DNA of 64,000 nt from Candidatus Omnitrophota bacterium (GCA_016208765.1 JACQXK010000009.1:118255-182254), one strand, 5' to 3'; shown: positions 26,742 to 42,493, numbered from the stretch's first letter. The notes: a model not told the origin generated them from the letters alone. Program-made: numbers and translations.

Positions 26742-28018
26742 AGAAAATCATTATTTCTTTAGCTTTAATTTCGCTATTAAGAGGTATAAGCTATGCTGAT
26801 ATTTTCTCTAAAGACGATACCACTAGCCCTTATACCATAGACAGCGCTATTTCCGAAGATAGGTCCGGCTTCTATTACCGGGGAGGTCTTGACTACCGGC
26901 CGACTGTTCCGGTTGATGAGCCGGGAGTAGGTTACTCTATCTTAAGTGGTTCAAAAGGATGCAGCGGTTTTGACCTTGCCTCAAGCTTTAACAGCGTTCT
27001 CTCAGAACAGATCCTGGCGGATTATATGAAAGGTATATCCAGCGAAGCAATGGCAGCTGCACCGATGTTATTATTAGAGTATGTTTCGCCGACATTGGCA
27101 GACATCATCAAACACTTTAATGCTATGACTAATATGCGCCTAGGTCTAAGGTATGCCCAATGCGAAGACATCGAGAAGGCAGCCGGGGAATACATGGATA
27201 AGCTAAGGAAAAAGAGTGAGAGCGAGTGCGTTAAAGAAAAAGTAGCAACCGGCCTTGATATTGACTCAGCGCTTAAAGCCTGCAAAGAGGGGAAAGATCC
27301 ATTCGCCTTCCTGAAGAATGCTGAAGGCGTTCCCTTGGCACAGGGAGGAAAAATCGATGTACTTTCAGATATCTTTAAGAAGATAAATATCCCGGGCGAG
27401 AGAAAAGATTTTGTCAAATCAGTGGTAGGCGAGACCACCATCACCTCATCACAGATTGAGAACAACAAAGGAGAAAAATCCATCTATAAGGTAAACGATG
27501 AGTTTAGGTCTGAAACTTCCGATAAGTTTCTCTCTCTTTTCAATGAATACCTGAATTCAAAAACTGTATCCAGCGATTCATTAAAAGGCCTGTCCTTACA
27601 CAATAATCCGGTGACAGAGGAACAGATTAGAGATATAGCTTTGATGCCTAAGGCAAAACAATATATAGCGATTTCCAAAATTTCCTCTGACATAGCTTAT
27701 TTTAAGACTGTCTCCCAATACAGGCAGGCTATGGATGATTTATTAGAGGCAATGCGCGCGCCTGGCTTAGATGATGTGCAAAGAGGCGTGCTTGAGCGGG
27801 ATTATAATTACCTGAAAGAGAAACTGGAAAGATTCAAAGAGGAAAGAGAGATTTATAAAGATTACAACGAAGCCGTAGCCGGTATCTTATCGGAATCAGA
27901 AAAAGAAAAGCTCAATACCATTATAAATGATGATGGAACAAGCTCGTATTTCAACGATACTACTGAAACGCAGGATAAAAAAGAGATGTACCTGTCTGCT
28001 ACGGAAGAAAAGGAGTAA
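26738..28018 (+). CDS. traH: TraH (F-type pilus assembly)
   Basis: 426 aa; signal peptide. GxGC.GxD...SF segment (SGSKGCSGFDLASSF) resembles F TraH (NAGCGGIDAFLGSF). Coiled-coil C-terminus. Confidence 0.45.
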   Translation: MKKIIISLALISLLRGISYADIFSKDDTTSPYTIDSAISEDRSGFYYRGGLDYRPTVPVDEPGVGYSILSGSKGCSGFDLASSFNSVLSEQILADYMKGISSEAMAAAPMLLLEYVSPTLADIIKHFNAMTNMRLGLRYAQCEDIEKAAGEYMDKLRKKSESECVKEKVATGLDIDSALKACKEGKDPFAFLKNAEGVPLAQGGKIDVLSDIFKKINIPGERKDFVKSVVGETTITSSQIENNKGEKSIYKVNDEFRSETSDKFLSLFNEYLNSKTVSSDSLKGLSLHNNPVTEEQIRDIALMPKAKQYIAISKISSDIAYFKTVSQYRQAMDDLLEAMRAPGLDDVQRGVLERDYNYLKEKLERFKEEREIYKDYNEAVAGILSESEKEKLNTIINDDGTSSYFNDTTETQDKKEMYLSATEEKE

Positions 28019-28091
28019 TATAAAAAATGAAGATTTTAGATCATGATCTCAAACTATTAAAATATATTCAGTTTTTAGGAAAGAGGATTAA

Positions 28092-28958
28092 CTATGCAGA
28101 TTTACGAAAGTAAAACCCTTCTTTGAAATAAGGGTGTTTTTTTAATAGTTCAACCCTACGTAAGTTGAGATTGGATAGTCCATTTCTCACGGTTTCCTCG
28201 TAATATTTTTCTCGATTTCCTACCAATTTGTTCTTTCCGTTAAAAAATGTTTCAAAGATTATATGTTTGATTCTTATAAAATCATCTTTAATTATAGCAT
28301 TGATTGCAAGCAATGAGTCTAATATATGCACCATTCTTAAGCAATTATCTCGATGATAAGTAGGATCAATCGATGAAAGATGTGCCCAAATATGTCGGTT
28401 AAAATTTAATAATGGCAAATCGGATCTTCTTCGTACCTGTTTATATAAAGTATTAGAAAGTAAAGTAAGTAGATTTTCTACGATGTAAGTGAGAAGCGGT
28501 TGTAATTCAGGGCGTCCTGCGCGTAGAGACATCATTCTTTGAATATTACTATTGTCTATTCGAACGAATTCCCTTTCTCCTATTAACTGGAGGATGATGC
28601 CTTCTGGCAAGGGAGTCAATACTCCCTCACAAGTAATCAAGTTTAAGTCATACAACTCTAGAAGACCGATTTCAACCAAGTGCGAGAATTTATCTATTGG
28701 CTGAAGATTACAGTATCCTTCTTCTATCAATATGGCCCGAAATTTATAAAGAAGTGTATTAACAAATATCTCATCGGCAATCATCTTCCCGTAATGTTCT
28801 TTATCTCTTAGGGTGGGCGTTCCAGGAAGGCGTTTGATAAAATCAATAAATTTTGGCTTTACAAACTGAAAAAACCAAAAAGGAGATATAACCCATTCAT
28901 ACTTAGTTAATTTTACATTGGCCAAATTATATGATTCAAAGAGTTCTCCATCAGTCAA
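28092..28958 (-). CDS. Hypothetical protein on opposite strand (possible Abi-like defence gene)
   Basis: 288 aa; no motif recognised with confidence. Its 3' end abuts a 46-bp duplicated segment. Confidence 0.25.
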   Translation of the reverse strand: MTDGELFESYNLANVKLTKYEWVISPFWFFQFVKPKFIDFIKRLPGTPTLRDKEHYGKMIADEIFVNTLLYKFRAILIEEGYCNLQPIDKFSHLVEIGLLELYDLNLITCEGVLTPLPEGIILQLIGEREFVRIDNSNIQRMMSLRAGRPELQPLLTYIVENLLTLLSNTLYKQVRRRSDLPLLNFNRHIWAHLSSIDPTYHRDNCLRMVHILDSLLAINAIIKDDFIRIKHIIFETFFNGKNKLVGNREKYYEETVRNGLSNLNLRRVELLKKHPYFKEGFYFRKSA

Positions 28959-29340
28959 TATTGTCTCCTTTTTTATATATAACTTTATGGCATAGAAACT
29001 AGCTGATTCTATTGGAATTGCATAAAATTACATATTTTAGAATGCACAGGTAAAATTATATCAAAGATTGAAAAAATTGTCATTTAGATTTTGTCGTGGT
29101 GGCCACACGATTCACTTTAGCGGCTGAAATTTTTCTCTGTTTATTAGAGAACCTATCCTATGGCAGGCCTTATAAATTCTTCAGTTATCGTTTCTGAATT
29201 GGACTACAAACCATTACAGGAACGTATTTTCTCTTCTATAAAATTTTTACTATCTGTTTTGCAGTTTTTTCGATACACTAACCTTTTCTTCGATCAGACA
29301 GCTTCCTTTTCTCATTTTTTATTTTTTCTTGTCTTCAGTA

Positions 29341-29675
29341 ATCCCCTTTCTTTTTATCCGCCTACAATAACCCAAGCCTGACTTTTGCTCAAGAAAATCC
29401 TTCGGAAAAATTCATCTCTGCCTAAAAAGCCTTTTCGTGGTTTGCCTCGGAAAGGCTTTTTTGTCATCAGAAGTATTCTGCCCCTATAGGGGAGTCTCAA
29501 TTTTTCCAAAGGACTCCCAAGAAGGTCGCTCGTTTGGCTCTCGCTTCCCTTCGGGCATGTCTGTTTTTTTGACAAAAGACCGTATTTTCTGTGGTGTGCC
29601 TCAAAAAATACTTCAATTTCTTGGGTTTTAATTTTCGGCGTCAAAAGAAAGGAGGCTTACATGAGCCAAGTAAAA
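29341..29675 (+). promoter_or_regulatory. Copy 1 of a ~320-bp duplicated leader/promoter module (ends in RBS + ATG + MSQVK)
   Basis: About 80% identical to 33190-33512. Contains TTGACT/TTGACA boxes, the hairpin GGGAGTCTCAATTTTTCCAAAGGACTCCC, and a conserved AAAGAAAGGAGGCTTACATGAGCCAAGTAAAA end. Confidence 0.6.
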
Positions 29676-29963
29676 ACAAAACAAAAAACAAATCGAAAGG
29701 AGGTGAATACTATGATTGAAGTAGCCAGAGTTTATAAAGTCGAAAAAGACGAGAGCTCCCTGAAGGCCTTTGTTGACATTAAAGTCGCTGACGCGGTTTT
29801 AATCAAAGGTATCAGGGTTATGGCTAAAAAAGACGGCGGGCTGTTCGCAGCTATGCCATCCCATTTAGCTGGCGACGGTAAGTATTACGATACCGTTCAA
29901 TTCTTAACGCCTGAGGCAAAAACCGAATTGCAAGAAGTGGTTCTTGCAGCCTACGAGGCTTAA
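29661..29963 (+). CDS. spoVG: SpoVG-family nucleic-acid-binding protein
   Basis: IKGIRVMAKKDGGLFAAMPSHLAGDGKYYDTVQFLTPEAKTELQEVVLAAY parallels B. subtilis SpoVG ([47 protein letters not shown]). An internal Met at 29712 with an AGGAGG RBS is the probable true start. Confidence 0.65.
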   Translation: MSQVKTKQKTNRKEVNTMIEVARVYKVEKDESSLKAFVDIKVADAVLIKGIRVMAKKDGGLFAAMPSHLAGDGKYYDTVQFLTPEAKTELQEVVLAAYEA

Positions 29964-30021
29964 AGAATTTAAAAACTTTAAAAGCTGTCCTATCGGCTAT
30001 ACGGGGGAAAGGAAAGATAAA

Positions 30022-30255
30022 ATGAACTTAAACGAACTAGAGAACGAAAAGACAAAAATTAAGCTTGCAGGGGAAGAGGTAGAGGTTAAAACTTCTGATT
30101 CCGTAAAGGATACCTTAACAAGGCTCCTTAAGGAAAAAGGCATTGATTCTTTTACCATTTTGGTTGACGGAGAAGAAGTTACCTCTACCGATGACTTGCC
30201 GGCTACTTTTGACGGTCATGATATCGAAGTTGAAAGATACGTCAAGGCAGGTTAA
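30022..30255 (+). CDS. Small beta-grasp ubiquitin-like protein (Ubl) with C-terminal Gly
   Basis: 77 aa. Alternating hydrophobic pattern of a beta-grasp fold (KIKLAGEEVEVK ... FTILVDGEEV). Ends ...VERYVKAG. First gene of an E2/E1/JAB cassette. Confidence 0.5.
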   Translation: MNLNELENEKTKIKLAGEEVEVKTSDSVKDTLTRLLKEKGIDSFTILVDGEEVTSTDDLPATFDGHDIEVERYVKAG

Positions 30256-30325
30256 ATAAAAAAGCCAAAGGAGAGGGAGAGATTCTTTTCTCCCTCTCCT
30301 AAAGTTTAATAAGGAGCTTGAGAAG

Positions 30326-30913
30326 ATGATAGATACGGAATTAATCACAAAAGCAAAGAAAAAATCAACATTAATTGAAAAGATTGACGCCTCTTGGCGG
30401 GAGTTTACGGAAAGCTTAAAAGAAGGTATCTTTACGGTTCCTTTTACCGGAGGTTACAGATGCGTAATCAAGGAAGATGATATGCTTATTGAGGGCTATT
30501 CTGGTCTATTGCTCATAGATAAGGTCTACTATAGCCATAAGACCTATTCTTTAAAGATACCTGTCAAATATTACCCTTTTAAAATTTACGGCATCTATGA
30601 CCAAGGTGGCTGCTTTATTGCGTTTGTTTCAGAGCCGGAGATAGGCTTCCACTATTTGGGTATGAGCGATAAGGGGCATACCATCTGCACCGGAGAGATT
30701 CAATACCTTAACCCTGAATCTTTAGGCTTGCTCAAAGAAGCCTGCTTAAAGATAGCCAAGTCATTCAGGGTAATCAACCTTGAATCCTTAGGAACCGTAA
30801 TCTTACCCGAGAGATTCTCAAATTTAAAGAACATCCTGTCAAATAAAGATAAAGATGTATCATGCAAATTTTCGGAATTGGATAAGCAAGGTCTGATTGA
30901 GCGGATCATTTGA
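30326..30913 (+). CDS. E2-like (UBC-fold) conjugating enzyme candidate
   Basis: 195 aa; HYLGMSDKGHTICTGEI resembles the UBC HPN...Cys catalytic segment. Sits between the Ubl and the E1. Confidence 0.4.
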   Translation: MIDTELITKAKKKSTLIEKIDASWREFTESLKEGIFTVPFTGGYRCVIKEDDMLIEGYSGLLLIDKVYYSHKTYSLKIPVKYYPFKIYGIYDQGGCFIAFVSEPEIGFHYLGMSDKGHTICTGEIQYLNPESLGLLKEACLKIAKSFRVINLESLGTVILPERFSNLKNILSNKDKDVSCKFSELDKQGLIERII

Positions 30914-31854
30914 AGGAGGATAAAACTATGCCACAAGAAGCTATTTATGAACGACAGAGATTAATAGAAGGTCTAGAAATACCCGAAGTCGCCTCGGTAG
31001 TAGGCTGTGGCGGAACGGGTTTCTGGACTGCTCTTCTTCTTTCCATGTCAGGAATTAAAGAATTGATCTTGGTTGATACCGATATAGTTGAGGTATCCAA
31101 TCTGAACAGGCTGCTTTTACAGGAAAGCTCTGTAGGAAAGAAGAAAGCAGAAGCCCTAAAAGAACTCATATCCGGCATAAGAAAAGAAATAAGGATTGAG
31201 ATTCAGGATATGCGTATCGAAAAGCCCATAGACTGCCAGATATTACGTGGAGATATATTTTGCTGCACGGACAACTTAAAAAGCCAGCAGATTATCTGCG
31301 CTTTCTGCAAAAAGAACGAACTTGCCTACCAAAGAATTGGCTATGACGGCACAATCCTGAATGTTTCAAAGACCTTCCCGCTTTCCTTAAAAGATACAGA
31401 TGAGGATCGGGGCTATACAATTACTCCTTCCTGGGTGATTCCTGCGGTATTTGCCGCGGCAGCCGGAGTTTCATCACGCACTTACAAGGAACTTTGCCTT
31501 ATGGATGATATCGGGAAGGTTCATATACAGCATTCTTCTCATATCTGTCGCAAAATTTTAGACGATGCGAGAATCGAAGGCGAGGATAACATTATTGATA
31601 ACATCGAAGACCATATACCTGATAACTACGGTTACTGTGATGATTGCTCAAGGATTGACCCTGACGGCTCTGATTACGGATACTGTCCTGACTGTGAAGA
31701 ACATTACAGCGATGACGATATAGAGGACATAAAAGAAAAAGCAAAGAATGAGGAGTACGACCGGATAATCGGGGAGATTGAGGCAGGAGAGATTACTGAC
31801 CCAAAGTTATTAGAAGCCATTAGAAAATGGGCAAAAGCAAAAGGAGGAAAATAG
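30910..31854 (+). CDS. E1-like activating enzyme (ThiF/MoeB/UBA superfamily)
   Basis: Rossmann motif VVGCGGTGFWTALLLSMSGIKELILVDTDIVEVSNLNRLLL (GxGxxG ... D.D.V..SNLNRQ). Acidic Cys-rich C-terminal tail (CDDC...CPDC). Confidence 0.75.
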   Translation: MKEDKTMPQEAIYERQRLIEGLEIPEVASVVGCGGTGFWTALLLSMSGIKELILVDTDIVEVSNLNRLLLQESSVGKKKAEALKELISGIRKEIRIEIQDMRIEKPIDCQILRGDIFCCTDNLKSQQIICAFCKKNELAYQRIGYDGTILNVSKTFPLSLKDTDEDRGYTITPSWVIPAVFAAAAGVSSRTYKELCLMDDIGKVHIQHSSHICRKILDDARIEGEDNIIDNIEDHIPDNYGYCDDCSRIDPDGSDYGYCPDCEEHYSDDDIEDIKEKAKNEEYDRIIGEIEAGEITDPKLLEAIRKWAKAKGGK

Positions 31855-31855
31855 A

Positions 31856-32668
31856 ATGTTTACGTTAGAAGATACTAAAACCAAAAAAAGCAATATTTTA
31901 GATGTAAGGATAAAAAATTACGGGGAATGTGGTTTTTGTACTGACCATGACCACAAAGAAACTCTAAAGATACCTTGGAATATCTGGAGTCAGTGGCAGT
32001 ATATCAGTCAGCGCATACAGGATAAGGAATGGGGCGCTATATTTTGGGTTAAGGATAATACCATAACGAGCTTTAAAATCCCAAAGCAGGAGGTAGGCTC
32101 AGTAGACTGTGAATTCAAGGAAGAATTAGGGGGTGATGGCATAATCCATTCGCACCACGATATGGGAGCGTTTCATTCATCGCAGGACGATGCCCACGCG
32201 CGCAATCTCTACACTTACAGCATAGTTATAGCTAATTCCAAGGGAAGTATTGCTACAAAAAGAGTAAAGCTACCCTGTAACGGCTTTGGCTACGTCAAAA
32301 TAAGCTTAAAACTGGTTGAATTACCTGAGATAGATCTTTCAAAGATAAGCGAAAGAACAAGGGAGTTAATTCCAGAGGCGACCTCAGAATTTGAAGAAAG
32401 CGAGCATCCTTGCGACAGTTGTCAAACCGGCGACTGCGAGAACTGCGAACACTTAGGTATGCCTTATCTAGCTTGCCAGACCTGTGATACCTTTAAATGC
32501 AAATCGTGCAAGACAACCGCCGGTCTGGACATCCGGGGTGTGCTTCCTTTTTGCGAGCTCTGTAATGGCTCTGATATTTGTGCTTCCTGCGAAAGAATCG
32601 CAAAATACCTTAAAAATTACCCAGAAGAGCGAGGTCATTTACAAACTCCAGTTGAGAGCCAGGCGTAG
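31856..32668 (+). CDS. JAB/MPN (JAMM) metallopeptidase with C-terminal Cys-rich zinc-ribbon region
   Basis: Exact JAMM motif H-S-H-x7-S-x2-D in IIHSHHDMGAFHSSQDD plus upstream Glu. C-terminus has ~16 Cys in CxxC pairs. Confidence 0.7.
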   Translation: MFTLEDTKTKKSNILDVRIKNYGECGFCTDHDHKETLKIPWNIWSQWQYISQRIQDKEWGAIFWVKDNTITSFKIPKQEVGSVDCEFKEELGGDGIIHSHHDMGAFHSSQDDAHARNLYTYSIVIANSKGSIATKRVKLPCNGFGYVKISLKLVELPEIDLSKISERTRELIPEATSEFEESEHPCDSCQTGDCENCEHLGMPYLACQTCDTFKCKSCKTTAGLDIRGVLPFCELCNGSDICASCERIAKYLKNYPEERGHLQTPVESQA

Positions 32669-32686
32669 AGGTTTATAAATACGCTC

Positions 32687-32828
32687 GCCCCGCCCTGCCT
32701 TAGGGGTTTTTGGGTTAGGGGGTTTTGGGTGGTTTTGATTGGAACGAGCGTGCGGTAGCCTTCGAGAGGGTTGTTGACGAAACCACCCGAAGGCATACCG
32801 CCCGCAAATAACTTTAAGTGCTTGGGGG
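32687..32828. repeat. Right copy of 142-bp inverted repeat (IR-R)
   Basis: Reverse complement of 5879-6020, 141/142 identical. Begins 19 bp after the JAB gene stop. Confidence 0.9.
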
Positions 32829-32873
32829 TAAAGAAATAAGTTTTAAAAAATTAATTAAAAGGGAGAGAAAAAT

Positions 32874-33074
32874 ATGAAAGTTGATAATTGGGTTGACGAA
32901 TTACGAAATCAGTTAAGAAGCTTCGACGCGGAAACCTTAGACAGCGAAATGAAAATGGCTGATATAACGCTGGGCTATGTTGATACGCAAGGCCTAATTC
33001 ATTACCACAAAATTGAATACAGGGCAAAAGGATTTGAGAAGAAGCCGGTCCTAAACCAGCCCTTACAGAGCTAA
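32874..33074 (+). CDS. Hypothetical small protein (66 aa)
   Basis: ORF with GGGAGAG RBS; no motif recognised. Confidence 0.2.
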   Translation: MKVDNWVDELRNQLRSFDAETLDSEMKMADITLGYVDTQGLIHYHKIEYRAKGFEKKPVLNQPLQS

Positions 33075-33189
33075 AATTTACGCATTAAAATTCAGGCAGT
33101 GGATGGCCAAAATATTCGGCCTTTCCATAGCTACGCGCTTTTCTCTTCATCCTCAAATTTTCTTTTCTGTTTTTCCTTGCCGTCACGTA

Positions 33190-33512
33190 ATCCTCTTTCT
33201 TTTTCTCGCCTTAAAAATAGCCCAAGATTGACTTTTGTGCAAGAAAATCCTTTGGAAAAATTCACCTCTACCTTGTCTTTGCGGTTTGCCTCAAAGGACA
33301 AGGTATCAAGGATATCCTGCCCCTTCGGGGAGTCTCAATTTTTCCAAAGGACTCCAGGAAACTCGCTCACTTGGGCGTTCGCTTCCTTTCGGGCGTATCT
33401 GTTTTCTTGACAAAAGACGTGATTTTTGTGGGTTACCTCAAAAATCACTTCAAATCATTGGGCTTATATTTTCGGCATCAAAAGAAAGGAGGCTTACATG
33501 AGCCAAGTAAAA
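33190..33512 (+). promoter_or_regulatory. Copy 2 of the duplicated leader/promoter module
   Basis: Direct repeat of 29341-29675, including the GGGGAGTCTCAATTTTTCCAAAGGACTCC hairpin and the RBS+ATG+MSQVK start. Confidence 0.6.
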
Positions 33513-33791
33513 AAAGAAATATTAAAGAAAAACGAAAAATTTGAGGATGGGATGCTGCGCACGGATGCCTGCATGGAAAGGCATCTGGGCAGCCGTAATT
33601 CTCAATACAGGACCTATTCAGAGGATCTGTCGCAGAATTCCTTCGGTTTTTCCGCTGTCTGGGAAGAAAGACATCTTATGAAAGACGTCTACAATCTCAT
33701 CAACAAGGGCTTTAAGCCAAACGGTTCTGAAACTCTGGAAACCTTTGTTGAGAAACATCGGGATTTGCTTGATGAAGAAGGTGATTTCTAA
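33498..33791 (+). CDS. Hypothetical protein (97 aa) driven by leader copy 2
   Basis: Starts with the same MSQVK codons as the spoVG-region ORF and then diverges. No recognisable domain. Confidence 0.3.
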   Translation: MSQVKKEILKKNEKFEDGMLRTDACMERHLGSRNSQYRTYSEDLSQNSFGFSAVWEERHLMKDVYNLINKGFKPNGSETLETFVEKHRDLLDEEGDF

Positions 33792-34006
33792 TGCAGGAGT
33801 TTAAGAAGGTTACAACTAATGAAGTAACTGAAAAATTAACCATGGGCCAGATTGAGAAAGTCTGGCAGCGGGTTGATGCAAGAAAAGAGCAGGATTCAAA
33901 TCAGCTTAGCCTGCAGGTTTTTTGGTTTGCAGGGGTAGAGGTTTGGGTAATAGATGAAGGTGGTATTACTACAATGATGTTTCCTAACGAAAATAAGGAG
34001 GAATGA
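33791..34006 (+). CDS. Hypothetical small protein (71 aa)
   Basis: Overlapping stop/start (TAATG) with the upstream ORF. No motif recognised. Confidence 0.25.
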   Translation: MQEFKKVTTNEVTEKLTMGQIEKVWQRVDARKEQDSNQLSLQVFWFAGVEVWVIDEGGITTMMFPNENKEE

Positions 34007-34336
34007 AAATGTGGATACAAAAAGACAACTTAAAAAAAGAAATAACCTGGGAGCGAATTTTGGATTGGGTAGTAATTGACGGAGTCTTGTGGGTGGAAAT
34101 TCAAGAAAAGGAGGTGAAAGACGTATGTATAGTCCAGTGTTAAGCGAAACAATGGTTAAGACGCTGTATAGGCTGAAATACAGCCAGGATAAGCCGATGA
34201 CTGTGGTGGTTGAGAAGTTGCTTCTGCGCTCGATAGCATCTATAGACAAAGGGCCGGTGTGTGAGAAATGCATCAGTGAAAACAATAATGATTGCAGGAA
34301 TTGTTACCTATCCTGTATTACAAAGGAGGTTTCAAA

Positions 34337-34677
34337 TGTTAACAGAAAATGAATTAAGGCAATTTAGCGGAACAGAGCATTGGTATAAACATTTAAGCGG
34401 GTATCTTTACACTGATGGCATTCAATATGTCGCGCAAGAAGGTGGTGCATTTTGGCTAATTGATAAAGTATTGTTTATGACCAGAGCGAAAAATAATTTA
34501 CAGGAATTTGGCGTTTGGAAGCTTAAGGTTAATGAAGATAGATCGGCAACACTAGTGTGCGAAGACGGTAATTACCATGAGCTCTATCGAGAGAAGATTG
34601 AGTGGACAGATTTTCCGCTGAAAAGAATTGAATTATGGTTTGAAAATGGCGTTTTAATACTGCCAAGCGAACATTAA
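34337..34677 (+). CDS. Hypothetical protein (113 aa from the internal Met at 34337)
   Basis: AAAGGAGG RBS before the ATG at 34337. The longer track ORF begins at 34261. No motif recognised. Confidence 0.3.
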
Positions 34678-34874
34678 AGAAAAAGACTGAAAAATATGTA
34701 ATTAAGCGGACTACGAAGATTGCTACTAATCCGACAGAAAAATATTCTTAGAGGTATTAGGTTGTAGTTTTAATAGTTTTATTGTAGAGGAATTGTTTGA
34801 CGAATAAGAAATTAGGTTTATAATTAGATTTAGACTGTTATAATATGTTACAAAAGGTGTAAACCTATAAAAGA

Positions 34875-35066
34875 ATGAAAGAATCTATTGAAGTATATAC
34901 AGTTGAAGAGCTTGCAAAGGCCTTAAAACTGCATCCTTATACTATCAGACGTTTATGCCGGGAAAACAAGATCCCGGCTTTTAAATTTAGCGGCCAGTGG
35001 CGGTTTAACAAAGACTCAATAGCTAAATGGGCAAAGGAAAGAGAGAAATTATATTATAAGAAATAA
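34875..35066 (+). CDS. Excisionase / MerR-like HTH_17 DNA-binding protein (Xis-like)
   Basis: 63 aa, YTVEELAKALKLHPYTIRRLCRENKIPAFKFSGQWRF (helix-turn-helix of the excisionase/HTH_17 type). Preceded by TTGACG...TATAAT promoter-like elements at about 34797-34830. Confidence 0.5.
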   Translation: MKESIEVYTVEELAKALKLHPYTIRRLCRENKIPAFKFSGQWRFNKDSIAKWAKEREKLYYKK

Positions 35067-35081
35067 GACAGCTTAGAAAAT

Positions 35082-36323
35082 ATGCTCAACAAAAGAATTG
35101 TTATTACTGGAATAGGCGTAATTTCTCCGATAGGTATTGGTAAGGACAAATACTGGCAAAGCCTTTTTGAGGGAAAGTCAGGAATAAAACCAATTACGCT
35201 TTTTGATGTTTCAGGGCTTAAGGTTAGAACCGGCGGAGAGATTAGTAATTTTAATCCTAAAGAGATTTTAGGTGATAGCAATCTGCGTACTTTAGATAGG
35301 GCTACTTTACTGCTTGCCTCAAGCACTAAATTAGCCATCGATGACGCAAAACTGGAAATTAATAAAGAGAACAACCGGCAAATAGGAGTATCTGTTGGTA
35401 CCACCTTCGGTAGCTTAAATAGTATCTCCGAGTTTGATAAGGCTTCAGTTACTGACGGTCCGCGTTATGTCAACCCTTCGGTTTTTCCCAACACTGTATT
35501 TAACTCTCCGGCAAGCCAGCTCTCCATTCGATTTCATATCAAAGGATTCAATACTACTATTTCATCTGGTATGTGCGCTGGGCTTGATGCCATAGACTAT
35601 GCAAGAGATTTTTTATATCGCGGCAGAGCCAAAACCATTATTTGTGGTGCAGTTGAAGAATTTTGCATTCAAACATTCCTCGGTTTCTATAAATTAAACT
35701 ATCTTGCCGGACTAAAAAATAACTCTGAGCCAGTATCTTGCCCTTTTGATAAGCGCAGAAATGGTATTGTTTTCTCAGAGGGTGCTACAACCCTGATGTT
35801 GGAAAGCTTGGACGATGCTTCATTCCGTAAAACTAAGATTTACACGGAAATCCTCGGTATTGGATCTTATTTTGATCCCTACCGTCTGACTAAATATAAC
35901 CCTGAAGGTAAAGGAATGAAGCAGGCAATGCACTTAGCACTTAAGGATGCGGGCCTTAGTCCGCAGGATATTGGTTGTGTTTTTGCTAATGCTAATTCTA
36001 CACAAGACGCAGATAAATTTGAAACTCAAGCCGTAAAAGATGTTTTTGGTTCTTATGCTGATAAAATACCTATTGTTGCTGTTAAGTCTATGCTTGGCGA
36101 GACATTCAGTACGGGCGGAGGCCTTGCAGTCATAGCCGCCATAGGCGGTATAAATAATGGCTTTATCCCCCCAACTATTAATTATAAAAAGAAAGATTTG
36201 GGATTAGATTTGGATTATGTTCCAAATAAGGCGCGGAAATTTAATATAAATACGGCTATGGTAAATACCTTTGGTCAGAATGGCTGGAATAAAAGTTTAA
36301 TTATCGGCAGACGCAAAAAATAA
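35082..36323 (+). CDS. Beta-ketoacyl-ACP synthase-like protein lacking the His-His dyad (CLF-like partner subunit)
   Basis: KAS fold with Cys in TISSGMCAGLDAIDYA. Positions of the two catalytic His read ANANST and GETFSTGG instead of HGTGT / GHxxGAAG. Confidence 0.65.
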   Translation: MLNKRIVITGIGVISPIGIGKDKYWQSLFEGKSGIKPITLFDVSGLKVRTGGEISNFNPKEILGDSNLRTLDRATLLLASSTKLAIDDAKLEINKENNRQIGVSVGTTFGSLNSISEFDKASVTDGPRYVNPSVFPNTVFNSPASQLSIRFHIKGFNTTISSGMCAGLDAIDYARDFLYRGRAKTIICGAVEEFCIQTFLGFYKLNYLAGLKNNSEPVSCPFDKRRNGIVFSEGATTLMLESLDDASFRKTKIYTEILGIGSYFDPYRLTKYNPEGKGMKQAMHLALKDAGLSPQDIGCVFANANSTQDADKFETQAVKDVFGSYADKIPIVAVKSMLGETFSTGGGLAVIAAIGGINNGFIPPTINYKKKDLGLDLDYVPNKARKFNINTAMVNTFGQNGWNKSLIIGRRKK

Positions 36324-36328
36324 AGAAT

Positions 36329-37435
36329 ATGATCAACTTTGCTTTTTTAGGCCACTATATGAGCGCGGACAATCTTGAGGATATTTACAGATTTTATCCT
36401 TTTTTGCGCAGTTTTAACTGGTTTTTGAAGAGACAACCTAGGATTTTTAGAGAAAATATTATTAAATATCTTCCGCCCCATAAATTCATGGATATAAGAA
36501 ATGTTGTTTCAAAAACAGGCTTGAAAATAGACGGTATTGCTGTAATGTGTCCTTATGTGCCAAAGCAGATGGTAACATTAGGAGAAAAAGTTGTTTTAAA
36601 AAAAATAATCTCTTCGGTAAGACTGGCAAAGAAATTGGGTGCTGGCATTGTCGGCTTAGGCGGTTTTACTTCTATTGTAGGCAACGAAGGCGAAATAGTG
36701 GCAAAAGAAGTGGATGTTGCAGTTACATCCGGAAATACTTATACCGCAGCTTTAGCTTTACAGGGTATTGAAAAAGCCGCGCAGATTTTGGAGAGGCCTT
36801 TAGAGAGTTCTGTTGTGGCAGTAATTGGAGCTACCGGTGATATCGGCGGTATTTGTGCGAAAATTCTCTCTAGAAAAGCCAAAACGCTTATTCTTTGTGC
36901 AAGAAAAATAGAAGAAGCCGTTGATTTTATTTCAGTCTTGAAGAAATCCTCTAGGACAAATATCATAATTGAAAAATATGCCGATAAGGTAGCATCTCAA
37001 GCCGATTTTATTATTAGCGCCACCAGTGCCGCGACTACCATTATTTCGCCGCAGAACCTAAGGCCGGGCGCAGTAGTTTGTGATGTATCTTTACCTCCAG
37101 ATATTGCTAAAGAAGTGATTAAGATGCGCAATGACGTATTTGTTTTTGACGGTGGTAAGGCTAGTTTTTTAAATTCCGGTTTAATCGAAAGTAATAAATG
37201 GAAAGGCATATTTCCGAATGGTATAATTTATGGATGTCTGGCTGAAACAATGATTTTGGCTTTAGAACAGAAATTTGTAAATTTTTCTATAGGTAGGGGC
37301 AATATCACTGAGGATAAGATTAAATTTATCTCTGAGTTAGCCGAAAGGCACGGTTTTTCTTTGGCGCCATTCCATTGCGGGAGATATATTTATACACAGG
37401 AAGACATTCAAAGAATTAAAAATCTAATTTCTTAA
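36329..37435 (+). CDS. Long-chain acyl-[ACP] reductase (Aar) family protein
   Basis: GLGGFTSIVGNEGEIVAKEVDVAVTSGNTYTAALALQGIEKAA ... VAVIGATGDIGGICAKIL ... LILCARK and C-terminal GRGNITEDKIKFISELAERHGF parallel cyanobacterial Aar (ALGGFTSII...TTGNTHTAYVICRQVEAAA...VAVVGATGDIGSAVCRWL...LILTARN...GRNQITIEKMEAIGEASVRHGF). Confidence 0.6.
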   Translation: MINFAFLGHYMSADNLEDIYRFYPFLRSFNWFLKRQPRIFRENIIKYLPPHKFMDIRNVVSKTGLKIDGIAVMCPYVPKQMVTLGEKVVLKKIISSVRLAKKLGAGIVGLGGFTSIVGNEGEIVAKEVDVAVTSGNTYTAALALQGIEKAAQILERPLESSVVAVIGATGDIGGICAKILSRKAKTLILCARKIEEAVDFISVLKKSSRTNIIIEKYADKVASQADFIISATSAATTIISPQNLRPGAVVCDVSLPPDIAKEVIKMRNDVFVFDGGKASFLNSGLIESNKWKGIFPNGIIYGCLAETMILALEQKFVNFSIGRGNITEDKIKFISELAERHGFSLAPFHCGRYIYTQEDIQRIKNLIS

Positions 37436-37450
37436 AAGGAGGCAATTACT

Positions 37451-37705
37451 ATGGCAGACACGGGAGGTATTAATATTAAACAGGAAATTCAGACAATATT
37501 GTCAAAGATTCTCAACCGTCCGTCGGAAGAAATTACCGATGATGCAAGGTTTGTAGAGGATTTGGGGATGGATTCCATTATGTCTATCGAAATCCTTGCT
37601 TCTATTGAAAAGAAATTTAAGATTACAATTCCCGATGAAGAAATAAAGAAGGTGGCTTCCTTAAGACAAGCAATTGAGCTAGCAGAAAAATACATCAGAA
37701 AATAA
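37451..37705 (+). CDS. Acyl carrier protein
   Basis: 84 aa; phosphopantetheine-attachment motif DLGMDSIMSIEIL. Confidence 0.75.
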   Translation: MADTGGINIKQEIQTILSKILNRPSEEITDDARFVEDLGMDSIMSIEILASIEKKFKITIPDEEIKKVASLRQAIELAEKYIRK

Positions 37706-38940
37706 TGTCGGATTTTAAGAAAAGACGCATTGTAGTCACGGGCTTAGGCATAATTTCTTCAATTGGCATTGGTAAAGATGCTTTTTGGAAGAATGCCATT
37801 GCCGGTAAATCTGGGATTTCCGAGATTACTACTTTTGATACTTCTGGTTATCTCGTGCATAAAGGCGGTCAAATCAAAGATTTTAGTACTGAGGAATTTA
37901 TTGATAAAAGAAAACTTAAATATGTGGGTCGCGCGTCTCAATTAGCGGTTGCCGCCGCAAAGTTAGCCTTGGAAGATGCAAAATTAAGCCGTAGTTATTT
38001 ATCTAGACATAATGCTGGCGTGAATATGGGTACTACAATGGGTGAAACGCAATGGATTGAGGAAATAGACACAGTTTGGGCAACCTCCGGCAGTGAAAAA
38101 GTAAGAATTGAACCAATATATGAATATCCGCCTTATGCGCTTACTTCAAATGTTGCAATGGAGTTTAAATTGACTGGCCCTAATTTTATTTTTACTACTG
38201 CCTGTGCTGCGGGTAATTATGCCATTGGATATGCTTATGATCTACTTCAGGCAGGCAAAGCAGATTTGATGCTTGCCGGAGGCTCAGACGCGCTTTCAAG
38301 AATTGCATTCACTGGTTTTAGCCGGTTAGCTGCGGTTGCCCCTGAAAAATGCCAGCCATTCGACAAGAACAGAAAAGGAATGATGGTGGGTGAGGGTGCC
38401 GCCGTTCTTGTATTAGAAACTTTAGAGAATGCTCTCAAACGGAAAGCCTCTATTTACGCTGAGATTCTTGGGTATGGTTTAAGCTGTGATGATTATAGTA
38501 TGATGATTACCATTGAAGAAGGTATGCGTTTTGCTATGGGAGAAGCAATAAAAGAATCAGGCATTGATAAAAACGAAGTGGATTATATCAGCGCGCACGG
38601 CACAGGCACTCCACAGAATGATAAAGAAGAATGTGCGGCAGTAAGAAATGTTTTTGGAGAAAGAGCCAAAGAAATTCCACTTACTTCCTTAAAATCAATG
38701 TTAGGGCACACTATGGGCGCTGCTTCTGCGATCGAAGCATTAGCCTGTTGTTTAACGGTAAAAGATGATATAATTCCACCTACAATTAACTATGAAACAC
38801 CGGATCCTGAATGTAATCTGGATCACGTACCTAATACAGGTAGAAAACAAAAGATAAATATTGCTTTAAATAATGCCTATGCTTTTGGCAGTAATAATTC
38901 ATGTTTGGTAATTAAAAAATACGATGAGCGATCTCAGTAA
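37705..38940 (+). CDS. Beta-ketoacyl-ACP synthase II (FabF-like), catalytically complete
   Basis: Cys in FTTACAAGNYAIGYA; His in ISAHGTGTPQNDKEE; His in LGHTMGAASAIEA. Confidence 0.8.
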   Translation: MSDFKKRRIVVTGLGIISSIGIGKDAFWKNAIAGKSGISEITTFDTSGYLVHKGGQIKDFSTEEFIDKRKLKYVGRASQLAVAAAKLALEDAKLSRSYLSRHNAGVNMGTTMGETQWIEEIDTVWATSGSEKVRIEPIYEYPPYALTSNVAMEFKLTGPNFIFTTACAAGNYAIGYAYDLLQAGKADLMLAGGSDALSRIAFTGFSRLAAVAPEKCQPFDKNRKGMMVGEGAAVLVLETLENALKRKASIYAEILGYGLSCDDYSMMITIEEGMRFAMGEAIKESGIDKNEVDYISAHGTGTPQNDKEECAAVRNVFGERAKEIPLTSLKSMLGHTMGAASAIEALACCLTVKDDIIPPTINYETPDPECNLDHVPNTGRKQKINIALNNAYAFGSNNSCLVIKKYDERSQ

Positions 38941-40402
38941 AATTAAGGATAAGTATGACGTTATAATCATCGGCGCCGGCATCGGAGGCCTTGTTTGTGG
39001 TTGTTATTTGGCAAAAGCAGGGATGAAGGTATTAATTGTAGAGAGAAATAATAAAGTTGGGGGATATTGTGGATCATTTAAGAGGAATGGTTTTATTTTT
39101 GATACAGGTGTTCATGCTTTAGAAGGGTGCGGACCTAATGGTATCTTAAATAAGATCATCCAAGATTTGGGGATAAATTCTTTATTAAAAATAAAAAGAA
39201 TTGATCCTTCCGATGTAATTATTACTAGTTTTGGTAATTTTAATATTAGAAATGATATTAAAATTACGATAAATGAATGGACAGAAAGATTCCCGCGTTG
39301 TAAAGATGGAATCCAAAACATCTTTGGGCTTATTTTAAATAAGGATTTTGTTTTGAGATACCCCGAACTTAAGAAAATAACCTTCGATAAATTACTAAAA
39401 AGGCATGTTAAGGACAAGTTTATCACAACATTGTTATCTGTTTTGTTTGTCAATGTGGGTTTGCCAATAAATAGATTATCAGCGGTAAATGGCCTTATCT
39501 TCCTGAATCATTACTTGTCAGATGGAGGGTATTACCCGGAAGGGGGCATGCAAGGTTTTGTTAATGTTTTTCAAGAAAAATTCAAATCTTTCGGTGGGAC
39601 GGTATTATTAAATACTACAGTCAACAAGATATTCTCAGAAAATAAGTGTGTACGTGGAGTCGTAATAGCAAATAACAATATTTTTGAATCAAAATATGTT
39701 ATTTCTAATTGTGATGCTACACAGACATATTTAAATTTAATTGATAACCAAGAGACTCAAGTTAAATACAAAAAGCGTTTAGGAAACATGGTTACTTCTG
39801 CCTCTGTTTTTATGGTCTCTTTGGGTTTAAAAAAAGATATATATGATAGAAATTTTGATTGCGGTGCGTTGTGGTATTTGAGAAATGAAGATGAAAATGC
39901 TGGACTTGAAATGCTCTTTAAGAATAAAACAAATTACAATAGCAATTGTATTATGATAGCCTTCCCTTCATTCCACGATAATAAATTAGCCCCGGTTAAT
40001 AAATCGTCTATCTATTTGATGTGCAACGCTAATTTTAAAAACGCAGAGTATTGGAAAGAAAATGAAGAAAAAGTTGCGAATGAGCTAATTGGTATTGCGG
40101 AGAAGGTTGTCCCACTAATAAAGAATAATATTGAAGTTAAGCTTATCGCTACCCCACAGACTCTATATAAATATACTCTTAATAAAAACGGCGCTATGCA
40201 TGGATGGGCTTCCTTGGTATCACAAATTGATCCTACAATTATTCCTCGAGAAAGTGATATCAAGAATTTATTTTTCGTTGGTCATTGGATAACGCATCCT
40301 GGGCAAGGTGGAATTCCAATGGTGGCAAAATCAGCCTATAATTTGGTTAACATAATACTTAGCAAAAGTAAACAAAACGCATTTATGGAGAAATGCCGAT
40401 GA
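38924..40402 (+). CDS. FAD-dependent oxidoreductase (phytoene-desaturase/amine-oxidase superfamily)
   Basis: N-terminal dinucleotide-binding motif DVIIIGAGIGGLVCGCYLAKAGMKVLIVERNNKVGG; 492 aa. Confidence 0.65.
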   Translation: MSDLSKIKDKYDVIIIGAGIGGLVCGCYLAKAGMKVLIVERNNKVGGYCGSFKRNGFIFDTGVHALEGCGPNGILNKIIQDLGINSLLKIKRIDPSDVIITSFGNFNIRNDIKITINEWTERFPRCKDGIQNIFGLILNKDFVLRYPELKKITFDKLLKRHVKDKFITTLLSVLFVNVGLPINRLSAVNGLIFLNHYLSDGGYYPEGGMQGFVNVFQEKFKSFGGTVLLNTTVNKIFSENKCVRGVVIANNNIFESKYVISNCDATQTYLNLIDNQETQVKYKKRLGNMVTSASVFMVSLGLKKDIYDRNFDCGALWYLRNEDENAGLEMLFKNKTNYNSNCIMIAFPSFHDNKLAPVNKSSIYLMCNANFKNAEYWKENEEKVANELIGIAEKVVPLIKNNIEVKLIATPQTLYKYTLNKNGAMHGWASLVSQIDPTIIPRESDIKNLFFVGHWITHPGQGGIPMVAKSAYNLVNIILSKSKQNAFMEKCR

Positions 40403-42486
40403 ATATTTATTCTATTTCATTGTTGTTAGCATGTGTATTTAATTTATTTATAGGCTTGTTTGTATATTTTAAGAATCCCAAAGAGAAGGTAAACAGATTT
40501 TTTGGAATATACTACATTGTTCTTACTATGTGGGTTTTTGGATGTTTTATGGAAAGTAGTGTTGGGACTGCACAAGATGCGCTTTTTTGGGATAAGATTC
40601 TTTACACGGGTTGCATACTCGCTGCTCCTTTGTATCTTCATTTTTGTTATATTATTACGGGAAAAAGCAATAAATCAAAGTTGTTATATTTTTCTTATTT
40701 AACCGCAATTATTTGGTTAATTTTTAATTTTAGCTCTTCTTTAAGGCCGTTTTTTATTAACGATGTTGTTCATAAATATTGGTATAGATTTATTGCTGTG
40801 CCCGGATTTTTGTGGTATGTCTATGTGCTTTGGTTTAACTTATTAGTGACGATGATGTTTGTCGTATTGTTTAAATATTTCTTACATTCTTCAGGAATCA
40901 AAAGATTGCAGGCGAAATACTTGTTGTTTGCATTTTTGATCATGATCTCAGCAGGTTCTTTTTATTTCCTGCTTTTGTTAAATATTTCATCTCCCCCAGT
41001 CGATCCGTATCTTTTGATACTATTTGGAGTTATTATGTCCTACGCTATAGTCCGGCACCAGTTAATGGACATCGAAGTCATCATCAAGAAATCCCTCGTC
41101 TTCGCCGGGATGTTTGCTTTTATCTTTGGTATTTATATTGGAATTACGCTTATAATCTCTCAATTTGTAGCAGGTGGTAAAATTTTCTCTTTGATGATTA
41201 GTGCATTGATCATCACCGTAACTCTTCGTCCTCTTGAAAACTGGCTTGTTAATATCACCGACAAATTCCTCTTTCAGAAAAAATACGAATACAAGCAGAT
41301 CCTAAGGGCGTTTATCGATGAGGTAGTAACCGTCTTAAATCTTGATGAGATAGTTAATTCTACGCTAAAACTCTTGGACCAAACTTTACATCCATACACC
41401 GCAGGGGTATTCATTTTGAACAAGGTAGATGATAAATTCCAGCTTTACAATTCATCTGGGCTGGAAGATAAGGATATGGTTTTTACTTCTGAATCAAAGC
41501 TGTTAGCTTTCTTTAAGAAGACCCATGGTCCTTCGGTAATTAAGCAGATAGATGGTATAACCGGAGTAAATCCGGAGATAGCTGTAGAAATGACTAAATT
41601 GAAAGCAGTAATCGCCCTACCTTTTATGTTGCACAATGATTTGATTGGTTTTATTTCGTTGGGGAAAAAGAAGTCAGACGAAGAATACACTAAGGACGAC
41701 CTTGATGTGCTTCTGGATCTCGCCCGTACCGAGGCAATAGCTATAGGTAACGCCCAACTCCTTACTGAGGCCGCCCAATCCGAAAGGCGCGCGGCCATCG
41801 GCACCATGGCTGCAGGAATAAATCATGAGATTGGGAATCCGCTAAATATTATGTCAAATAAGATTCAGGTATTTAAGTTGGCTCGGCAAAAGGGGTTGTT
41901 TAAAGATAAGCCTAGCGAAGGAATCTTAGATGAGGCAGAGAAAGCATTGGATGAATGTCTGAAGCAGACAGAGAGGATTTCAATAATCACGAGAAAGTTG
42001 TCAAATTTTGCCAAACCAAGCAAAGAGTTTAAACCGGATTTGGTAAACATCCCTCAGGAAGTAGATGAAACTCTTTTTATTGTCGGTCATGAACTGGATC
42101 TGGAAAGAATCGCGGTTAAAAAGGAATTTAGCGCAGAGCCGCAGAGAATTTTGGCGGATAAGTATGATATTCAGCAGATTTTGTTCAATATAATAAGGAA
42201 TGCCGGACAGGCAATTGAGGGCCAGGGGAAGATTATTATCAGAGTGATGCCAACCAGAGATGGCAAAGTGCATATTGAAGTGGAAGATACAGGTAAAGGA
42301 ATCCCTGAGGATAAAATACACAAGGTATTTGAGCCGTTTTTTACCACCAAAGGCTCTAAGGGCGGTACAGGCCTGGGTTTATCTATTGTCAGGCAGCTTG
42401 TCCGGCGCAATAAAGGCGAAATTACTTTTCGCAGCCTTGCCGGTATCGGGACGACTTTTATTATAGCTTTTCCCAAAGCTGGTTAA
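40393..42486 (+). CDS. Sensor histidine kinase with polytopic N-terminal membrane domain
   Basis: About 7 TM helices, a GAF-like region, a HisKA segment (INHEIGNPLN), and HATPase_c (GTGLGLSIV ... GIGTTFIIAFP). Confidence 0.75.
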   Translation: MPMNIYSISLLLACVFNLFIGLFVYFKNPKEKVNRFFGIYYIVLTMWVFGCFMESSVGTAQDALFWDKILYTGCILAAPLYLHFCYIITGKSNKSKLLYFSYLTAIIWLIFNFSSSLRPFFINDVVHKYWYRFIAVPGFLWYVYVLWFNLLVTMMFVVLFKYFLHSSGIKRLQAKYLLFAFLIMISAGSFYFLLLLNISSPPVDPYLLILFGVIMSYAIVRHQLMDIEVIIKKSLVFAGMFAFIFGIYIGITLIISQFVAGGKIFSLMISALIITVTLRPLENWLVNITDKFLFQKKYEYKQILRAFIDEVVTVLNLDEIVNSTLKLLDQTLHPYTAGVFILNKVDDKFQLYNSSGLEDKDMVFTSESKLLAFFKKTHGPSVIKQIDGITGVNPEIAVEMTKLKAVIALPFMLHNDLIGFISLGKKKSDEEYTKDDLDVLLDLARTEAIAIGNAQLLTEAAQSERRAAIGTMAAGINHEIGNPLNIMSNKIQVFKLARQKGLFKDKPSEGILDEAEKALDECLKQTERISIITRKLSNFAKPSKEFKPDLVNIPQEVDETLFIVGHELDLERIAVKKEFSAEPQRILADKYDIQQILFNIIRNAGQAIEGQGKIIIRVMPTRDGKVHIEVEDTGKGIPEDKIHKVFEPFFTTKGSKGGTGLGLSIVRQLVRRNKGEITFRSLAGIGTTFIIAFPKAG

Positions 42487-42493
42487 TTTTTAT

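Follow-up and report, generated by a model that had tools for sequence, protein, structure and literature searches.

What is the role of two long and similar sequences that each stand directly ahead of a different operon in the genome of an uncultured bacterium? The question is raised by a 64,000-nt stretch of DNA from Candidatus Omnitrophota bacterium (GCA_016208765.1, JACQXK010000009.1:118255-182254), here called the window, with positions counted from its first letter. A previous description made from the DNA alone (below, the sequence-only reading) had noted direct repeats at 29341-29675 and 33190-33512 with approximately 80% identity, and had considered them as leaders with promoter boxes, hairpins, a ribosome-binding site (RBS) and the five initial codons MSQVK. 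We find that each of the two leaders, A and B, folds as one long hairpin, and that with their relatives they form a conserved structured element absent from Rfam. The evidence leans toward a structure formed by single-stranded DNA (ssDNA), possibly also in mRNA. Our tentative prediction, which we place somewhat short of an even chance, is that the leaders are hairpin promoters on a transferred single strand and a functional analogue, unrelated in sequence, of the Frpo/ssi (single-strand initiation) promoters of IncF and IncI1 plasmids; the alternatives taken together are about as likely.

The repeat pair itself is genuine, with 29338-29681 and 33187-33518 being about 84% identical. The mean column identity in a MAFFT alignment of 29300-29720 with 33150-33560 was likewise 84%, and a repeat search of the window returned ungapped blocks of 80-92% identity spaced by 3837-3850 nt. 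Only two leader copies are present in the 64 kb, and the 28-mer GGGAGTCTCAATTTTTCCAAAGGACTCC occurs exactly twice, where none would be expected by chance. As had been described, AAAGAAAGGAGGCTTACATGAGCCAAGTAAAA terminates both copies, and their common terminal 32 bases span the Shine-Dalgarno sequence (SD), the ATG and four more codons. A second block, considered conserved, is found in both, with a single base changed between TTTTTTTGAC (A) and TTTTCTTGAC (B). The sequence quoted as a conserved hairpin is shared except that copy B lacks its last C, and it is better understood as one strand of a long-range helix (P5, below) than as a hairpin. Among the promoter boxes, TTGACA occurs in both copies, whereas copy A has CTGACT in place of the claimed TTGACT. 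The assignment of downstream genes was correct: leader A is followed by SpoVG and the ubiquitin-like (Ubl) cassette, consisting of Ubl, a 195-amino acid (aa) open reading frame (ORF), a ThiF-type E1 and JAB, and then by a 66-aa ORF (orf66), and leader B by a series of small ORFs, namely a 97-aa ORF and two further small ones, with DUF6876 and an HTH_17 protein after them. The inverted repeat (IR) of the sequence-only reading also exists, with copy A inside and copy B outside.

Each copy folds, on either strand, as one long, interrupted and imperfect hairpin and not as a string of small motifs, and the self-complementary unit exceeds the direct repeat because the non-homologous flanks pair too. 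With DNA parameters, leader A (29270-29740) forms 61 long-range pairs with 29276/29705 as the outermost minus-strand pair, and in its plus-strand fold 29288-29296 pairs with 29713-29722; leader B forms 78, joining CATCCTCAAATTT (from 33148) to AAATTTGAGGATG (up to 33550). In a DNA-fold scan of 300-nt windows (n=2124), the lowest energy on both strands belonged to leader B (-64.1; mean -27.6, s.d. 6.6), and the window from 29341 in leader A was the third lowest of the 2124, on the minus strand, despite a G+C content of about 40%. The DNA-parameter z-scores of the two leaders were -7.7 and -8.9. Other strongly folding windows (at approximately 23.2-23.6 kb and 49.6-50.0 kb) were rejected as candidates, being GC-richer coding sequence with many local stems and no long hairpin. 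The parts of the two hairpins are as follows.

29276-29722, unstranded: leader A, the whole unit (P0-P5 stem and side hairpins), ending in the SpoVG start region
29338-29355, plus strand: 5' strand of helix P1 in leader A, GTAATCCCCTTTCTTTTT, the complement of the SD region 29643-29660; helix 89% paired
29419-29466, unstranded: apical side hairpin H1 of leader A, an inverted repeat with loop TGGTTTGCCT, followed by a T-run
29582-29611, unstranded: side hairpin H2 of leader A, loop TGGTGTGCCT, on the 3' arm with TTGACA on one side and the TTTAAT/TATATT box on the other
29643-29663, plus strand: 3' strand of P1 in leader A, AAAAGAAAGGAGGCTTAC, with the SD GGAGG and the ATG at 29661
33148-33550, unstranded: leader B, the whole unit, which reaches about 17 codons into the 97-aa ORF
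33187-33204, plus strand: 5' strand of P1 in leader B, GTAATCCTCTTTCTTTTT
33270-33304, unstranded: H1 of leader B, loop CGGTTTGCCT, the same as in A, with a wholly different stem
33419-33448, unstranded: H2 of leader B, loop TGGGTTACCT, with a perfect 10-bp stem
33480-33500, plus strand: 3' strand of P1 in leader B, with the SD and the ATG at 33498

In P1, GTAATCCYCTTTCTTTTT at the 5' end pairs with AAAAGAAAGGAGGCTTAC of the SD region. P2 joins GCC with GGC, P3 ATARCCCAAG with CTTGGGYTTAT, P4 TGACTTTTG..CAAGAAAA with TTTTCTTGACAAAAG, and P5 CCTTYGGAAAAATT (29399-29414) with AATTTTTCCAAAGG (29497-29513), the last with compensatory changes among relatives. H2 and a GC-rich hairpin, H3, are inserted in the 3' arm alone. 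The stems of H1 and H2 are completely unlike between the copies while the loop, T-GG-NYTG-CC-T, is constant, and stem-flanked loops of this kind were found nowhere else in the window. H1 of copy A, a 14-bp stem followed by T6, is terminator-like; judged by eye from the alignment, the T-run 3' of H1 is a property of A-type copies and is missing from B-type ones, including copy B of the window. In copy B a T-run following the H3 stem was flagged.

Outward of the repeat, the stem continues as P0. In leader B the upstream flank pairs with the first 17 or so codons of the 97-aa ORF; in leader A it pairs with a short MSQVK frame, a second RBS and the SpoVG ATG. These flanks are non-homologous between A and B, yet each fits its own partner, as the pairing energies show.

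P0 pairing with the cognate partner: A -21.6, B -26.3 kcal/mol
P0 pairing with swapped partners: A -14.4, B -12.6 kcal/mol
P0 pairing with shuffled partners: A about -10, B about -10 kcal/mol

Support for P0 comes from this contrast between A and B only, because in the fine covariation within each leader type cognate pairs were no better than non-cognate ones.

A protein-guided genome scan gave 13 loci and a DNA pattern scan of metagenomes 109. With an nhmmer profile, 146 leaders of full length were found; they are spread over 115 loci of genomes and metagenomes, mostly from Omnitrophota, with one to three leaders each. Among these leaders 125 are unique and 87 are left at <97% identity, with pairwise identities of 55-100%. 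Every copy precedes either a SpoVG-like gene or a gene for a 93-97-aa protein starting with 'MSQVKKE..', and no third family was seen in this position. Leaders are spaced by 3.8 kb in the presence of the Ubl cassette and by 1.2 kb in its absence. One locus (L013) has a recombinant leader, with an upstream arm of A-type and a gene of B-type. In addition, a third, far-diverged leader (approximately 55-60% identity) stands before a second 97-aa paralogue at L024:10875-11250, L030:6110-6484 and L098:13298-13672, and long leader forms of about 445 nt were seen at L019:1392-1836 and L052:12166-12614. Additional hairpins with T-GG-NNTG-CC-T loops were noted at L019:2883-3271 and in the diverged copies L030:6110 and L024:10875.

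Covariation was analysed on an alignment of 81 non-redundant copies, for which a 122-pair consensus was used. Paired cells made up 91.4%, against 37-58% when the partners were slid; 50 of the 122 pairs had changed on both sides, compared with 29.1 ± 2.5 in shuffles, none of 500 shuffles reaching 50; and the covariation score was 0.139 against 0.074. Long-range pairs with compensatory changes were also reported by RNAalifold from the 81 sequences, e.g. 49/368 (AU 40, GC 35), 83/225 (UA 60, GC 17) and 84/224 (GC 63, AU 16), and in the two H1 helices (9 and 10) 8 of 10 and 8 of 11 pairs were altered on both sides. The leader structure is therefore real and under selection, and of the earlier claims that of a shared structured cis-element stands, with strong covariation and conservation in more than 100 related loci. 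No Rfam family matched at gathering score in the whole window, and at E<=1 over 29200-33650 only chance microRNA hits were obtained. Neither blastn of 28001-36000 against phage and plasmid collections nor a pattern scan of viral contigs for the leader returned a match.

Is the selected structure one of RNA or of DNA, and on which strand? Structured RNAs usually show a large excess of G.U over A.C. In the leaders G.U is no commoner than A.C at paired positions, which disfavours an RNA-only structure: single mismatches in Watson-Crick-only folds comprised 40 of G.T type (wobble on the plus strand) and 37 of A.C type (wobble on the minus strand), and mismatch cells of the consensus structure 216 and 325, respectively. 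As a strand test the wobble asymmetry was discarded, its symmetric outcome speaking against RNA-only structure and not picking a DNA strand. Fold stability did distinguish the strands, the minus strand being the more stable one in 80 of 81 copies under DNA parameters and in 73 of 81 under RNA parameters, by 5.4 kcal/mol on average against 1.6 in dinucleotide shuffles. Furthermore, minus-strand mismatches were purine-purine in 292 cells and pyrimidine-pyrimidine in 54 (50 versus 23 sites). As a positive control, the same tests were applied to eight published Frpo sequences of the transferred strand (T-strand; Supplementary Table 2, PMC11541004): the T-strand was 9-17 kcal/mol more stable, with purine-purine against pyrimidine-pyrimidine mismatches at 44 to 11 and G.T against A.C at 10 to 0. 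The leader minus strand thus has two of the three Frpo T-strand signatures, more weakly, and the third, the G.T excess, is missing. A need for pairing in both minus-strand DNA and plus-strand RNA would account for the strand-symmetric mismatches.

The boxes noted by the sequence-only reading do not make a conventional promoter of double-stranded (ds) DNA. There is no -10 at 16-18 bp, and TTGACA lies approximately 58 bp from the nearest TATATT because H2 stands between them. No plus-strand sigma-70-like site with at least 9/12 matches was found inside either leader, and TACAAT at 29363-29368 has no -35. Promoter-like elements are found instead on the minus strand of the distal arm, in the order AT-rich tract, -35-like hexamer, spacer and -10-like hexamer.

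29364-29392, minus strand: leader A, distal arm, promoter-like TTGAGC (29392-29387), 17-nt spacer and TATTGT (29369-29364)
33214-33242, minus strand: leader B, distal arm, promoter-like TTGCAC (33242-33237), 17-nt spacer and TATTTT (33219-33214)
29569-29574 (A) and 33407-33412 (B), plus strand: TTGACA of the 3' arm, near-invariant in the family, with its complement on the proposed template arm

Leader B also offers an alternative -35 register, TGCACA-16. A -35/-10-like pair occupies one structural position in 77 of the 81 copies, with 8-10 of 12 matches to a consensus that may not be that of Omnitrophota; the best score (10/12) belongs to the copies that have diverged furthest, with TTGATA-16-TATACT. 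Read as duplex DNA, the hexamers of the distal arm would point away from the genes.

These features suggest the following mechanism. During conjugation the minus (template) strand would enter the recipient and fold. The distal arm would then act as the non-template strand, presenting the AT-rich tract, TTGNNN, 16-17 nt and TATNNT, with the second half of the -10 falling in a mismatched stretch, and H2 would be looped out on the template arm, bringing the complements of TTGACA and TATATT there into line. With the proximal arm as template, host RNA polymerase would start near 29637-29640 in A and 33473-33476 in B and proceed along the stem to the RBS and into the gene, giving an mRNA with an open leader of about 22-25 nt and a strong SD. 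Once the complementary strand has been made, the boxes would be some 58 bp apart and the promoter would be lost; read-through mRNA would carry both arms, with SD and ATG hidden. The T-GG-NYTG-CC-T loops would bind a protein or serve as priming or stop signals.

Known ssDNA promoters are the Frpo/ssi elements of IncF and IncI1 plasmids, classes 1-3 (Masai & Arai 1997; PMC9849209; PMC11541004; PMC12672017), of which three sequence-unrelated classes were obtained by hairpin mining and confirmed by 5' rapid amplification of cDNA ends (PMC12672017). Like these, the leaders are long (approximately 300-400 nt), very stable imperfect hairpins, present in at least two similar copies a few kilobases apart, each 5' of an operon co-oriented with transfer genes; the two Frpo copies of the F plasmid are separated by about 5.4 kb and share 90% identity over 516 nt, and the operon behind each runs in the same direction as tra. 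Both have -35/-10-like hexamers in the stem with the -10 partly unpaired, and in both the complement folds less well than the transferred strand (a proposed one in the leaders), whose mismatches are mostly purine-purine. In the published candidate Frpo' 4 the hexamers likewise lie on the gene-distal arm, the -10 is unpaired in part and the stem has its base at the SD. The leaders are the strongest long folds in the 64 kb by a scan of the same type as the hairpin mining that yielded new ssDNA promoter classes (PMC12672017). For the leaders, activity specific to ssDNA, the start site and a position in the leading region are predicted properties. When the F leading region and the published Frpo sequences were searched with the leader profile (nhmmer), nothing was returned at E<=10, a result that places the leaders outside the known sequence classes and does not bar a common mechanism; those classes are mutually unrelated (PMC12672017). 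The hosts differ as well, being Omnitrophota for the leaders and Proteobacteria for Frpo.

The prediction requires that the minus strand is transferred. The window has F-type mating genes on the plus strand (Pfam: TraG_N, coupling protein (6793-9057), TraE, TrbI-like, TraC, TraU, TraF and TraH), in addition to a set of type IV pilus secretin, ATPase and platform genes (Pfam). Given these mating genes and homologues that are mostly from Omnitrophota, the leaders reside on an integrated conjugative element of this uncultured phylum, and they are co-oriented with the type IV secretion system (T4SS) and mobC genes. To the left of the conjugative genes lie housekeeping genes, an IS200-like transposase and a truncated comM, and between TraH and leader A is a minus-strand ORF with no assigned function. 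The following features bear on the origin of transfer (oriT).

5859-6020, minus strand: left IR arm, 162 nt, adjoining the MobC-like gene at 6036-6809; candidate oriT
6036-6809: MobC-like ORF of 257 aa with the coupling-protein gene next to it; weak match to NCBIfam MobC 'replication-relaxation' (E 1.4e-9, far below the curated cutoff)
32687-32848, plus strand: right IR arm, between the two leader-driven operons

The IR arms, 94% complementary, bracket 27 kb with the mobC-like gene, coupling protein, T4SS, leader A and the Ubl cassette. They contain direct repeats of GGGTTTT type, a hairpin of about 50 nt and the invariant CTTTAAGTGCTTGGGG, and the same element was found in 66 loci, typically some 350 nt 5' of a leader. 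The 162-nt repeat is a candidate oriT, present twice in opposite orientation. The MobC-like ORF, which has no Pfam match, is the only relaxase candidate that we see in the window; no classical relaxase, integrase or right end of the element was found in the window, the contig extension or the related loci. The usual oriT layout runs from relaxase gene through accessory repeats, hairpin and nick to the leading region. If this order holds for the candidate beside mobC, the minus strand would be transferred in the arrangement of the window and would serve both leader-driven operons as template, which is what the model requires. In three loci (L035:346-3810, L046:1734-2912 and L081) the mobC-like and coupling-protein genes are inverted and stand back-to-back with orf66, leader B and the 97-aa gene. 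The inverted module there adjoins the other IR copy, which is expected if the 27-kb segment flips.

Several observations weigh against promoters on the entering strand. Most copies have a modest score of 8/12, and one such match per 80-nt arm is not rare by chance. The leaders have two to four side hairpins with conserved loops, of which H2 places a three-way junction in the promoter spacer of the template arm, a feature absent from the folded F and IncI1 hairpins. The leader stem extends over the RBS, the ATG and at least 17 codons, whereas the F hairpin ends approximately 45-60 nt before the ATG. G.T and A.C mismatches are equal in the leaders (37:40 on the minus strand) in contrast to 10:0 in Frpo T-strands. 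Finally, the designations of the minus strand as T-strand and of the surroundings of the leaders as a leading region are inferences, and for the inverted loci this line of argument would have leader B entering as the sense strand.

The alternative that survives best, although we hold it rather unlikely, is that the hairpin works as an mRNA fold-back. Ordinary upstream promoters, possibly before orf66 or in the conserved ~100 nt ahead of leader A, would yield transcripts whose hairpin buries the SD, the ATG and the first codons, so that expression would need cleavage of the duplex by RNase III, a helicase or a loop-binding protein, SpoVG being a candidate for the latter. This is consistent with the complementarity of the 5' arm to SD, ATG and initial codons (in A-type leaders also to the second SD and the SpoVG ATG), with an RNA fold z-score of about -4 and with the U.U and C.U mismatches that dominate on the plus strand and are tolerated in RNA helices. 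It is also independent of which strand is transferred. Plus-strand promoter-like sites with 9/12 matches do exist upstream (33062-33091 and 29027-29056), but they are not clearly conserved among relatives; orf66 is only about 75-110 nt 5' of leader B, and this small gap makes co-transcription likely. What the fold-back does not account for is the lack of G.U enrichment over A.C, the better folding of the opposite strand in 73 of 81 copies even with RNA parameters, and the fixed minus-strand hexamers together with the invariant TTGACA; it also has no relative in Rfam.

A known case is IS10/Tn10, in which, as Davis, Simons and Kleckner reportedly found in 1985, fold-back inhibition shields the transposase from read-through transcripts. 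In the leaders, too, an upstream segment complements the RBS and start codon (P1, and P0 with the first codons), and transcripts initiated outside would be silenced while those starting between the two segments would be translatable. Unlike in IS10, the arms are some 330 nt apart, the duplex is an order of magnitude longer, and there is no convincing ds promoter between the arms, so that an internal start would need a folded single strand. The ssDNA promoter and the mRNA fold-back are not mutually exclusive. Both would operate in a two-state switch, which we regard as unlikely in this complete form: the entering template strand would form the promoter and give a burst of translatable mRNA with a short leader, read-through mRNA would later fold and silence the same genes, and the T-GG-NYTG-CC-T hairpins would be docking sites for a protein encoded by the element, such as SpoVG.

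It is quite improbable that the leaders are folded ssDNA on which RNA polymerase or primase primes the complementary strand, as in ssi or sso (single-strand origin) elements, with no direct role in gene expression; the conserved loops (always N-T-G) would then mark a start or stop point. Such elements include ssoA and the sso1 of ICEBs1, which Wright, Johnson and Grossman are said to have described in 2015. The leaders would share with them a large, orientation-specific fold of ssDNA, recognition by host RNA polymerase, a short loop motif and use after conjugative entry. Several copies per element in a single orientation, the occurrence of conserved-loop hairpins nowhere else in the 64 kb and a DNA-like pairing constraint would all suit priming, and Frpo was first described as both promoter and priming signal (PMC12672017). 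However, sso elements lack an association with an RBS and start codon, whereas the leaders have one and occur two or three per element; the precise placement of more than 140 copies on the RBS and start codon of two gene families, and a stem that reaches into coding sequence, are left unexplained. In addition, the ssoA motif CS-6 (TAGCG[TA]) is absent from both strands of both leaders.

A riboswitch or a transcription attenuator in a 5' untranslated region, as the sequence-only reading had suggested, is very improbable: the leaders do resemble structured RNAs and cis-regulatory leaders of Rfam in size (300-400 nt), conservation and covariation, and the A-type H1 (14-bp stem, T6) and the H3 stem with T-run of copy B recall intrinsic terminators, but Rfam gave no match, B-type copies lack the T-run after H1 (by eye), the mismatch spectrum is not RNA-like, with G.U not favoured over A.C, and the structure is a single, nearly continuous giant stem with neither a multi-helix ligand pocket with conserved unpaired nucleotides nor a conserved, mutually exclusive terminator/antiterminator pair. 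Equally improbable is a feature of duplex DNA, such as an array of palindromic operators, a cruciform driven by supercoiling or a site of recombination by which the Ubl module or other cassettes are shuffled. The strand-symmetric pairing constraints, the copy spacing of 3.8 kb with and 1.2 kb without the Ubl cassette and the recombinant leader of L013 could be quoted for it. However, the side-hairpin stems change wholly around fixed loops, which indicates selection on intrastrand pairing and not on a duplex that binds protein; the insertion site of the Ubl cassette lies between SpoVG and orf66 and not at leader boundaries; and no recombinase is linked to the leaders. Binding sites for a common regulator of ds DNA, another earlier proposal, would likewise leave the covarying stems unexplained. 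The proposed co-regulation fares better to the extent that leader placement would put both operons under like control.

To our knowledge, experimental proof of ssDNA promoters is limited to a few plasmids of enterobacteria, where their presumed role is to time the earliest genes for anti-defence and establishment once a plasmid has entered by conjugation. If the leaders are indeed promoters of this kind, they would be, as far as we know, the first class outside Proteobacteria, and an analogue in Omnitrophota, an uncultured and distant phylum, would suggest that the strategy is general. Early expression of a ubiquitin-like conjugation cassette would then be tied to DNA entry, and SpoVG, the Ubl-E1-JAB cassette and the 97-aa/DUF6876 genes would be 'first-minute' functions, which is a lead to their roles. 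With more than 140 natural variants, the family may serve as a model for which structural features matter, and even if it acts as RNA it would be a large and widespread structured element outside Rfam.

The genes that directly follow the leaders are these.

29661-29963, plus strand: SpoVG-like ORF (Pfam SpoVG, 3.2e-17), with its likely true start at 29712 behind an RBS of its own
33498-33791, plus strand: 97-aa ORF of the family 'MSQVKKE..EKFEDG..DACMER', with 90 homologues (E down to 1e-58), mostly in Omnitrophota

The five codons MSQVK are conserved, as had been claimed, possibly because they are part of the stem, but they are a native N-terminus only for the 97-aa family after copy B. In copy A the MSQVK frame (29661-29714, 17 codons) runs into the second RBS and the canonical SpoVG start (MIEVARV), within the hairpin. 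Here and in the majority of relatives, in which indels come in threes, the prefix keeps the SpoVG reading frame; in a few relatives it is out of frame and ends as an upstream ORF of 17-27 aa. The stretch in copy A is a vestigial frame. The 97-aa protein is 100% identical to a protein from a metagenome-assembled genome of Candidatus Omnitrophica (220-kb contig), and its AlphaFold model (pLDDT 66) was too poor for a structure search. The 97-aa, 66-aa, 71-aa and 195-aa proteins had no match in Pfam, NCBIfam or PADLOC, and the E1 protein had generic E1 matches only. The 195-aa ORF (30326-30913) lies between Ubl and E1, a position which suggests that it may be an E2-like partner.

Other observations concern the remainder of the element. 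A perfect 45-nt direct repeat, including an RBS and ATG, is found at 9654-9698 and 28057-28101, 18.4 kb apart; the first site is the start of a small ORF past the coupling-protein region, and the second is just past TraH at the edge of a variable hotspot. This hotspot, the gap between TraH and leader A (28019-29275 here), measures 1.5-12 kb and has different cargo in each element, elsewhere including DUF932, an AbiEii toxin and a type IIG restriction-modification enzyme (L086:433-1215, L008:504-1541 and L125:1-5588). At the left edge of the conjugative genes, 3064-4145 holds a Y1 transposase of IS200 type and the C-terminal part of comM (Mg-chelatase-like), which suggests insertion into or beside comM; the window does not contain the other half of this gene. 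The region 47586-61478 is a single ORF of 4630 aa, in which TPR repeats, a weak M20 peptidase region and coiled coils were the only matches. Downstream of the HTH_17 gene, 35082-46036 encodes ketosynthases, an acyl carrier protein, an FAD amine oxidase, a seven-transmembrane histidine kinase and many receiver proteins. The ketosynthase cluster recurs in related loci (L125:11647-19819 and L126:4019-11049), and so it may belong to the element and not to the chromosome.

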